From Escherichia phage WPEC1, in the sequence record PV659873.1: a stretch of DNA of 64,000 bases. One strand, 5' to 3'. The notes under the pieces are model-generated. The model was not told where the DNA came from and made no database searches. It saw only the letters and a program-made list of their open reading frames with translations. The translations under genes were made by a program, and so were the position numbers. Of this stretch, positions 31,485-31,844 are shown one piece after another. Within the stretch, counting starts at the first letter, position 1. Each line of letters begins with the position of its first letter.

Positions 31485-31531
31485 TTAATAGATGGTAGAT
31501 AGATGATCATAGTTTATCTACCTTCACTTAC

Positions 31532-31565
31532 GTTTCATACCTCACTATCGTGAGTAACATGAAAC
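31532..31565 (+). promoter_or_regulatory. extended imperfect hairpin
   Basis: GTTTCAT-ac-CTCAC-tatc-GTGAG-taac-ATGAAAC nested inverted repeats. Confidence 0.35.
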
Positions 31566-31653
31566 ATTATTATATAGAAATCTACTACTCGCTATCGCTC
31601 GTAAACATATGTTTAGGGTACCATATTTTTTTGAAAAAGTCAATGCTGATTCA

Positions 31654-31739
31654 CCTATCAATTATCTGTTTAAGATAAGTCTTACCTATCAATCTAAGTC
31701 TTAACTAGTATTGCACCTATAGTAAGACTATTCCTATAG
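31654..31739. repeat. cluster of short iterated motifs (iteron-like)
   Basis: CCTATCAAT x2 (31654, 31685), TAAGTCTTA x2 (31676, 31695) plus inverted copy TAAGACT (31723), CCTATAG x2 (31716, 31733). Confidence 0.6.
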
Positions 31740-31777
31740 TTATTAACCCTCTTCTTCTGTAGAATGTAATTAGATCC

Positions 31778-31806
31778 TTGACAAACTCACAAAGCTTGTG
31801 TTACAT
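31778..31806 (+). promoter_or_regulatory. sigma70-like promoter
   Basis: TTGACA, 17 nt spacer, TG-n-TTACAT. Confidence 0.45.
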
Positions 31807-31844
31807 TGTGTCTCACAGGTGAATAATACCGAACAGGAGGAAGA

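Follow-up and report, generated by a model that had tools for sequence, protein, structure and literature searches.

The 360 nt gap at positions 31485-31844 of the window, i.e. the whole 64,000 nt stretch of Escherichia phage WPEC1 (sequence record PV659873.1) that was analysed, is on balance probably a divergent-promoter region, the core of which would be an orphan sigma-70 early promoter that gives rise to a convergent non-coding transcript and is paired with a rightward promoter. An earlier note on this DNA had drawn attention to the short repeats of the gap; the observation is real but its emphasis is misplaced, the interesting object being a conserved orphan promoter-leader module on the minus strand (31532-31662), the main feature, which the note missed. 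The conservation of this module, its copy number, its orientation relative to genes, its synteny with the downstream gene (gene X) and its hairpin covariation are direct observations from the genomes compared here.

The window is from a Phapecoctavirus, i.e. a phAPEC8-like myovirus of the Stephanstirmvirinae, and the 2.1 kb that were tested share 100% identity with Escherichia phage WPEC4 and 95-99% identity with ~60 phAPEC8-like myoviruses. The gap interrupts a long series of small plus-strand genes, which ends with an orientation flip at ~34.9 kb, and is the longest intergenic gap of that series. Ordinary rightward TTGACA-type promoters are located in the remaining gaps (24882, 26268, 27734 and 34598), and canonical GC-rich terminators are present in other gaps as well (30138 and 34598). 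The upstream gene has the ribosome-binding site GGAGG, its start overlapping the previous stop codon, and the predicted leftward promoter points at its 3' end. A distant paralog of gene X follows at 32074-32289. Gene X showed no recognisable fold and no DNA-binding fold, and the neighbouring genes gave zero Pfam matches and matched PHROGs families of unknown function only. The features of the region are the following:

31275-31484, plus strand: upstream gene of the cluster, 69 aa with two hydrophobic segments, phrog_24123
31494-31522, no strand assigned: hairpin H2 (GGTAGATA / TATCTACC) with a 13-nt loop, 10 nt past the stop codon of the upstream gene
31532-31662, minus strand: conserved core, i.e. 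the module, with TTGACT-N17-TGG-TACCCT-AA, a small palindrome, the box CGAGCGATAGCGAG, an AT-rich stretch and hairpin H1
31532-31565, minus strand: hairpin H1, outer stem GTTTCAT/ATGAAAC (31532-31538/31559-31565), inner stem CTCAC/GTGAG, loop TATC
31566-31587, minus strand: AT-rich spacer from H1 to the box, 5 G+C in 22 nt, 0 variable sites in 7 genus members
31588-31601, minus strand: invariant box CGAGCGATAGCGAG, in which potential tandem G.A pairs and a closing C-G flank the mini-hairpin motif GCGATAGC (31591-31598)
31603-31614, minus strand: small palindrome AAACATATGTTT, spanning the predicted leftward start (~31608)
31615-31643, minus strand: predicted leftward sigma-70-type extended -10 promoter, -35 TTGACT at 31643-31638, 17-nt spacer
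31654-31693, minus strand: promoter-upstream element with two ATTGATAGG sites (31662-31654 and 31693-31685) and the first TAAGTCTTA copy (31676-31684) between them
31695-31777, no strand assigned: hypervariable spacer carrying the second TAAGTCTTA copy, both CCTATAGT copies and TAAGACT
31778-31807, plus strand: predicted rightward extended -10 promoter for gene X, TTGACA-N18-(TG)T-TACATT, predicted start ~31814
31845-32060, plus strand: gene X, 71 aa, phrog_16110, ribosome-binding site GGAGG at 31836-31840

The predicted leftward promoter differs from a generic sigma-70 promoter by an unusual invariant -10 region (TACCCTAA) and by the conservation of both its spacer and the box that would be transcribed. 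Its -35 hexamer matches TTGACA at 5/6 positions (phi92-type orphan copies have TTTACT), and the -10 hexamer is directly preceded by a TGn, i.e. TGG here (31623-31621) and TGC in relatives. The -10 hexamer TACCCT (31620-31615) agrees with the consensus TATAAT at 3/6 positions, keeping T-12, A-11 and T-7, and falls below the promoter-scan threshold both here and in relatives. The combination TTGACW-N16-18-TACCCT has one match in the window versus 0.04 expected, and a profile search of the window with the core returned a single hit (E 6e-15; next best E > 1). The box CGAGCGATAGCGAG is unique in the window as well, and no second module copy was found there, the second copy of this phage being located outside it. 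Alignment of six diverged versions left TTGA.TTTT, AAAAA, ATG.TACCCTAA and CGAGCGA.AGCGAG as invariant columns. The sequence at the small palindrome varies and is palindromic in most family members, the TCTTAGATGC type being an exception; the promoter model leaves this palindrome around the predicted start unexplained. A plus-strand promoter with TATCAAT as -10 was also considered and rejected on account of unsuitable spacing and key bases.

In a sensitive DNA search, other genera matched the gap over 31551-31647 but not over the repeat zone. The identity was 79% to 56 phi92-like Justusliebigvirus records over this whole segment and 85% to Citrobacter phage Tr1 over 31585-31644. Pattern scans were extended to IMG/VR, JGI/ENA metagenomes and GTDB genomes and gave ~30 distinct versions after chance matches had been discarded, i.e. 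a loose pattern scan and ~43/72 metagenome hits, all of them chance matches to a common CGAGCGAAGCGAG string. The module is present in two or three copies per genome in Stephanstirmvirinae and related metagenomic phages. In type A copies, a ribosome-binding site and ATG follow 64-79 nt past the box and open the gene of an ~89-aa membrane protein (phi92 gp208 and relatives), and the leader contains a hairpin in two tiers, with covariation in the inner stem (CACTC/GAGTG, CTATC/GATAG, CATTC/GAATG). In the second copy of Phapecoctavirus (ESCO5, ~132.1 kb), a 65-aa protein follows after 117 nt. Type C copies are located at a divergence point, where a gene in the opposite orientation has its start codon ~14-20 nt away, and lead after ~200 nt to an acidic ~70-aa protein; therefore, a promoter is required there. 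Large contigs individually carry types A and B or types A and C, and one fragmented assembly has A, B and C. All gene-associated copies are sense-oriented and at leader distance, with the ribosome-binding site 65-200 nt downstream, and it is mainly for this reason that we read the module as a promoter.

The copy in the gap belongs to type B, in which no ORF follows and the module points at the 3' end of a convergent gene. Such copies were found in the window, in phiWec190-type phages, in Tr1, in phi92-type phages and in six or seven metagenomic lineages, in each case antisense to the genes on either side; the window and all B-type relatives show the same convergence with the upstream gene. A conserved ORF follows in 0/11 B-type copies. 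The gene X family adjoins type B in the window, in the phi92 type (with a GTG start) and in six metagenomic lineages, and at least three unrelated families supply the convergent upstream gene in the different lineages. Between the window and the other lineages, the 59-nt core shares 69-91% identity, and gene X across the same lineages shares 53-67% nucleotide and 28-53% protein identity. The comparison shows an orphan copy that is maintained in an orientation in which protein expression is impossible. Full-text literature searches found no description of the module and no transcriptome or origin mapping for these phages.

Across the family, the box is invariant except for a 0/1-nt loop difference (GCGAAGC, GCGATAGC or GCGAAAGC), and its motif corresponds to the GCG-N(1-2)-AGC definition, in which a sheared G.A pair closes the loop, with GCGATAGC at 31598-31591 on the minus strand (PMC13037366). 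ViennaRNA predicted the box fold ((((..((....))..)))), composed of 4 bp, a GA/GA internal loop, two GC pairs and a tetraloop, in 8/11 B-type leaders and a shortened form of it in the window; many module copies have a second mini-hairpin of the C-GAA-G type right at the predicted start site. The nested hairpin described in the earlier note is indeed present and corresponds to H1. On direct inspection, B-type copies share its stem TTTCATG/CATGAAA or replace it by compensatory variants such as TTCCATG/CATGGAA, ATTGC/GCAAT plus TTACTC/GAGTAA, and ATAGTGT/ACACTAT. A covariance model of the box hairpin and H1 was built from seven sequences and used to align 26 hits. In this model-fitted alignment, 91% of cells were paired compared with 38-53% with slid partners, and 13 pairs were changed on both sides, which was reached in 0/500 shuffles; the model misplaces the 3' arm of the window's H1, so the evidence for H1 was taken from direct inspection. 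Known RNA families and tRNA remnants were rejected as candidates, as Rfam 15 gave no gathering-score match in the window and none at E <= 5 in 31400-31900, and a tRNA scan with ARAGORN found none.

The rightward promoter noted before could be recovered as TTGACA (31778-31783)-N18-TACATT (31802-31807) with a TG, the N17-TTACAT reading being equally possible. Extended promoters of this rightward type occur six times in the window versus 0.59 expected, and this one has 0/30 variable sites within the genus. It resembles the sigma-70 extended -10 early promoters of rV5-like phages and is one of the TTGACA-type series in the cluster. For rV5 itself, 33 consensus-like promoters have been predicted, 11 of them with an extended -10; these predictions are consensus-based only, and the skew analysis was uninformative (PMC3606486). 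At the equivalent place, phiWec190 has its own TTGTAA-N17-TATACT. Phapecoctavirus has gained ~145 nt of fast-evolving spacer and this dedicated rightward promoter between the module and gene X. No sigma-70-like promoter was found on the gene X strand in most related genera, where the ribosome-binding site of X is located ~60 nt from the leftward -35, and X must therefore be read through the module in these genera.

From sequence comparison we infer promoter activity, a start site, an RNA of a certain length and an effect on gene X, as follows. The core at 31532-31662 would be an orphan paralog of the promoter-leader module that these phages hold in two or three copies. Host sigma-70 RNA polymerase would use the TTGACT-N17-TGG-TACCCT and ATTGATAGG elements and start leftward transcription near 31608. 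The resulting RNA would open with a near-5'-terminal box hairpin (a UUAC/GUAG stem, tandem G.A, GC/GC and a GAUA loop), followed by the AU-rich stretch and then by hairpin H1. Lacking a ribosome-binding site, a conserved ORF and a canonical terminator, the transcript would enter the upstream gene convergently, from its 3' end, as a non-coding cis-antisense RNA. Minus-strand terminator-like sites were not found in 30500-33000, H1 and H2 being AU-rich and without a U-tract. Since the leftward transcript would be C-rich and untranslated, it is probably ended by Rho. GC-rich terminators are used by the phage elsewhere, and none of them ends the leftward RNA.

What the leftward transcript does to gene X we purely infer: its most likely effect would be local, with X and later genes insulated or delayed by convergent transcription and by an RNA able to pair with read-through mRNA. 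In most related genera, the convergent promoter would damp or delay X, which is read through the module, and in Phapecoctavirus the rightward promoter would restart transcription for X.

A close parallel in layout is the oop/pO region of phage lambda, which was once linked to the replication origin. As there, the predicted sigma-70 promoter is embedded in and opposes an early operon, and a short untranslated convergent transcript is predicted. The oop RNA, of 77 nt, stops at a clear intrinsic terminator, overlaps the 3' end of cII over a defined stretch and acts through RNase III; in contrast, no canonical terminator was found here, the gene that would be overlapped differs from lineage to lineage and the RNA is a predicted one. 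The module also resembles lambda nutL/nutR and HK022 putL/putR in being a structured element soon after several early promoters and in occurring in two or three copies per genome, with stem-loops of conserved structure. Unlike nut and put, however, the orphan copy has no operon to antiterminate, and neither a boxA-like sequence (CGCUCUUA) nor an N-like gene was identified for this comparison.

All repeats listed in the earlier note exist, i.e. (A)CCTATCAAT at 31654 and 31685, TAAGTCTTA at 31676 and 31695 with the inverted TAAGACT at 31723, and CCTATAGT at 31716 and 31733. Each exact motif is unique to the gap within the 64 kb, and none is enriched when one mismatch is allowed. At least three families of direct repeats of >=8 nt within 60 nt were obtained in 1.8% of Markov simulations, and 17/1061 overlapping 360-nt windows of the stretch, at ~7 loci, show the same; the repeat density is mildly unusual and, after multiple testing, uncompelling. 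A repeat search of 43-53 kb found nothing.

Variable-site densities among seven Phapecoctavirus sequences were 4.4% in H2, 2.9% in H1, 0% in the AT-rich spacer and 1.8% in the box and promoter, compared with 4.8% and 3.2% in the flanking coding sequences, 17.7% in 31645-31740, 16.2% in 31741-31777 and 0% in the rightward promoter. Put differently, the module has 4 variable sites in 159 nt versus 23 in the following 133 nt, and the leftward promoter stretch has 1 in 57 nt. Both CCTATCAAT copies and the first TAAGTCTTA copy between them are the sole invariant repeats, inside an otherwise variable zone, whereas the second TAAGTCTTA copy (31695, 31698), both CCTATAGT copies (31718; 31734, 31738) and TAAGACT (31724) carry substitutions. 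The spacer 31695-31777, to which the latter belong, has 20 variable sites and one indel in 83 nt, several of them within motifs, shows no significant fold on either strand and is unalignable with phiWec190. The second TAAGTCTTA, both CCTATAGT and TAAGACT are missing from phiWec190-type relatives; in phiWec190, both CCTATCAAT sites are present, and past the distal one the sequence is wholly different. Most of the supposed iterons are therefore fast-evolving spacer, and iterons were rejected as the key feature in view of the modest repeat statistics and their location in the most variable part of the gap.

The claim that no ORF with a start codon exists on either strand of the gap has to be corrected, as three were listed:

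31550-31678, plus strand: ORF of 42 aa with a GTG start
31609-31704, plus strand: ORF of 31 aa with an ATG start, annotated in WPEC4 and phAPEC8
31545-31661, minus strand: ORF of 38 aa with a TTG start

Two records annotate an ORF of 31-39 aa in the gap. The small gap ORFs lack a Shine-Dalgarno sequence and no conservation outside the genus was found. A codon-by-codon reading of 31609-31704 against its phiWec190 counterpart revealed mostly non-synonymous differences, and the gap is therefore effectively non-coding. On these grounds, 31609-31704 and 31550-31678, which some records annotate, were rejected as genes; a minus-strand 64-aa ORF starting at 31510 was discarded as antisense to a membrane-protein gene.

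The invariant pair of CCTATCAAT repeats is part of the promoter-upstream element, ATTGATAGG being the minus-strand reading of CCTATCAAT, with sites at -46..-54 and -77..-85 of the leftward promoter; the whole element is invariant in the 7 genus members. It is this element that could speak for a multi-operator hub, in which the short motifs would bind a phage or host protein co-regulating both promoters as the main function of the gap, a reading that we consider unlikely. A distance of 31 bp (three helical turns) separates the two sites, and other genera retain the proximal one at around -50. There, its counterparts ATTAATCGG / ATCAATCGG / AACGATAGG lie ~10 nt upstream of the -35, often with an inverted CCTATCAA 9-10 nt further upstream; in several genera, the inverted pair CCTATCAA-N9-10-ATTAATCGG is located between the leftward -35 and the ribosome-binding site of X. 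However, the G.U-type changes of this pair fit, in our own reading, a hairpin in the cluster-sense mRNA at least equally well, the remaining repeats are substituted and located in the most variable stretch, and the repeat density is merely in the top 2%. Furthermore, no candidate binder was found, gene X lacking a DNA-binding fold and Pfam giving nothing, and inspection by eye revealed no convincing IHF, Fis or CRP consensus in the ATTGATAGG region. Of the regulatory hub beside a promoter put forward in the earlier note, two predicted divergent promoters and one genus-invariant repeat motif (CCTATCAAT) remain, whereas its iteron or origin part is unsupported.

As another alternative, the core might act within the plus-strand polycistronic mRNA as a processing, stabilising or attenuating element, its minus-strand promoter look being a vestige of duplication, which seems to us quite unlikely. 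Cluster-sense RNA must cross the module in most genera, X having no promoter of its own there, and the H1 stem TTTCATG/CATGAAA is identical on both strands. The minus-strand fold has z = -3.45, but folding energies and z-scores are similar on both strands and the strands were not distinguished across 11 lineages. H2 of phiWec190 has two added G.U pairs on the plus strand only and pairs better there, while other lineages have a different long hairpin at this position. On the other hand, H1 extends to 12 pairs, 4 of them G.U, on the minus strand, and its G.U extension is restricted to the promoter-sense strand in the window (4) and in the versions L187 (1) and L064 (1), which favours the minus strand. 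No terminator-like U-tract was found on the plus strand, and a plus-strand element leaves unexplained why the -35, the 17-nt spacing, the TGn and TACCCTAA are invariant in orphan copies too. The minus strand is weakly favoured as the functional strand of the module.

Replication origins had been the other use proposed for the repeats. Iteron origins such as lambda ori and plasmid oriV have at least three regularly spaced direct repeats of ~17-22 bp that are conserved among relatives, an adjacent initiator gene and/or DnaA boxes, and a skew switch at the site. The repeats of the gap are un-iteron-like, with 8-10 nt, two copies each, mostly in its most variable part, and one conserved pair. DnaA boxes are absent within ~4.5 kb (the nearest one-mismatch 9-mers are at 26903 and 36563), and no initiator-like gene was found adjacent by Pfam, PHROGs or the fold of X. 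The GC skew does not switch at the gap and changes sign only at ~35 kb, at the gene-orientation flip; GC skew in such phages tracks transcription, and the missing change is therefore weak evidence against an origin.

An origin could also be activated by transcription, with the leftward promoter, an R-loop over the AT-rich stretch and a mini-hairpin priming site on the displaced strand; taken together, an origin of either kind strikes us as improbable. An orphan promoter without a gene needs another purpose, and a promoter followed by an AT-rich stretch (31566-31587) is reminiscent of the T7 primary origin (phi1.1A/B promoters and AT-rich region) and of T4 oriF/oriG. Those origins have phage-specific or middle-mode promoters and were mapped experimentally, whereas here nothing past anatomy points to initiation. 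The box contains exactly the GCGNAGC/GCGNNAGC mini-hairpin DNA motif of Hirao and colleagues, reviewed in PMC13037366, and its sole variation (GCGAAGC, GCGATAGC, GCGAAAGC) is the variation which that motif allows. Documented natural mini-hairpin sites are phage priming or transcription start regions, among them the primase sites of G4, St-1 and alpha3, and the known ones act in single-stranded DNA, i.e. the G4 complementary-strand origin, RSF1010 ssiA and the N4 virion RNA polymerase promoters (PMC13037366). Here, in contrast, the motif is part of double-stranded DNA, at ~+11 to +18 relative to a sigma-70-type promoter, and would be copied into RNA as well; as RNA, the mini-hairpin is much less stable, with a Tm of 39 C for r(GCGAAAGC) (PMC13037366). 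As a long shot, the module might be a transcription-activated priming site, with RNA polymerase opening at TACCCT allowing the non-template strand to extrude a GCGNNAGC mini-hairpin, which would resist SSB and recruit the primase-helicase of the phage, a model put forward for G4 oric and RSF1010 ssiA. The orphan copy would then exist purely for replication and the module copies would be the origins of rV5/phi92/phAPEC8-like phages; the box, however, is also found in ordinary mRNA leaders upstream of genes and is thus not origin-specific.

Finally, it is very improbable that the orphan copy is a non-functional relic, i.e. a duplicated promoter-leader that lost its downstream gene: no ORF follows and paralogous copies with genes exist in the same genomes, but its position, orientation and sequence are kept across genera in which the flanking genes have 28-39% protein identity or are replaced, and the coding sequences next to it vary more within the genus than the module does.

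The module would combine two known kinds of element, an early phage promoter that carries a structured leader and a non-coding transcript that runs convergently. No experimentally mapped promoter, small RNA or origin in Stephanstirmvirinae was found in the searchable literature, although members of this subfamily are much used as phage-therapy isolates. The module defined here, a conserved promoter-leader that contains an invariant mini-hairpin box, offers precise and cheap experimental targets, i.e. the start near 31608, the box and the ATTGATAGG sites. These targets could reveal how immediate-early transcription is organised in these phages, whether downstream genes are timed by a convergent non-coding RNA or, less likely, a replication start site.

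Short direct repeats as dense as those of the 360-bp gap at 31485-31844, which had first been read as iterons, also occur in other 360-nt windows, i.e. at 15001-15600, 19321-19740 and 24241-24660, all of them coding sequence (criterion: at least three families of direct repeats of at least 8 nt within 60 nt). Inside the gap, the local GC skew at 31500-31800 is negative (plus strand C > G) and that of the flanking plus-strand genes is positive, which is weakly consistent with an RNA-like minus strand over at least part of the gap.

Elements of the module found in the gap, i.e. 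a putative promoter followed by a leader with an invariant box and a hairpin, also appear in other viral contigs. TTGACT-N17-TGC-TACCCTAA was found without the box in two unrelated contigs from IMG/VR, L010 (17 kb) and L011 (63 kb), and in L011 a ribosome-binding site and an ATG lie about 30 nt downstream. These box-less occurrences suggest that the unusual TGCTACCCTAA -10 region may serve as a promoter element more widely. In another IMG/VR contig (L091, 84 kb), the box GAGCGAAAGCGAG comes after TGCTACCCTAA, with no recognisable -35 there, and sits within a perfect CCTATC/GATAGG stem, the arms of which have the same sequence as the core of the CCTATC 'iteron'.

Sequence searches of the gap region also matched records labelled as Acinetobacter phage ABPW7, Campylobacter phages B15 and A145 and Pseudomonas phage PsgM04F, which share 83-100% identity with E. 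coli Phapecoctavirus and Justusliebigvirus genomes over this region; their host labels look doubtful. Many records of related phages, such as ESCO13 (gp047), label the 65-aa ORF at 32295-32492 as 'DNA ligase'; a ligase would need to be far longer than 65 aa, and the name is probably a mis-annotation passed on from record to record. In the annotation of the related Escherichia phage WPEC4, the roughly 10 kb at ~43100-52900 carry about 45 tiny ORFs of about 30-130 aa on alternating strands, and this stretch could be low-coding or mis-annotated. It holds no long repeats, and no tRNAs were found in the entire 64-kb window. A 'non-coding' box is mentioned for the rV5 genome map (PMC3606486).

Type C copies of the module, i.e. 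those at a divergence point, are followed at about +200 nt by a conserved protein of 69-73 aa (in L153, L156, L141, L168, L201 and L055), which includes the sequence MPNMSYCMFENTSNDMQD and ends in a strongly acidic C-terminal tail (EEEDED). No homologue is encoded within the 64-kb window, and the only PHROG matches, 26791 and 8760, are both of unknown function. As a predicted promoter, the type C module would drive expression of this protein; its place as the first gene product behind an early promoter would be in keeping with a DNA-mimic or anti-restriction role.
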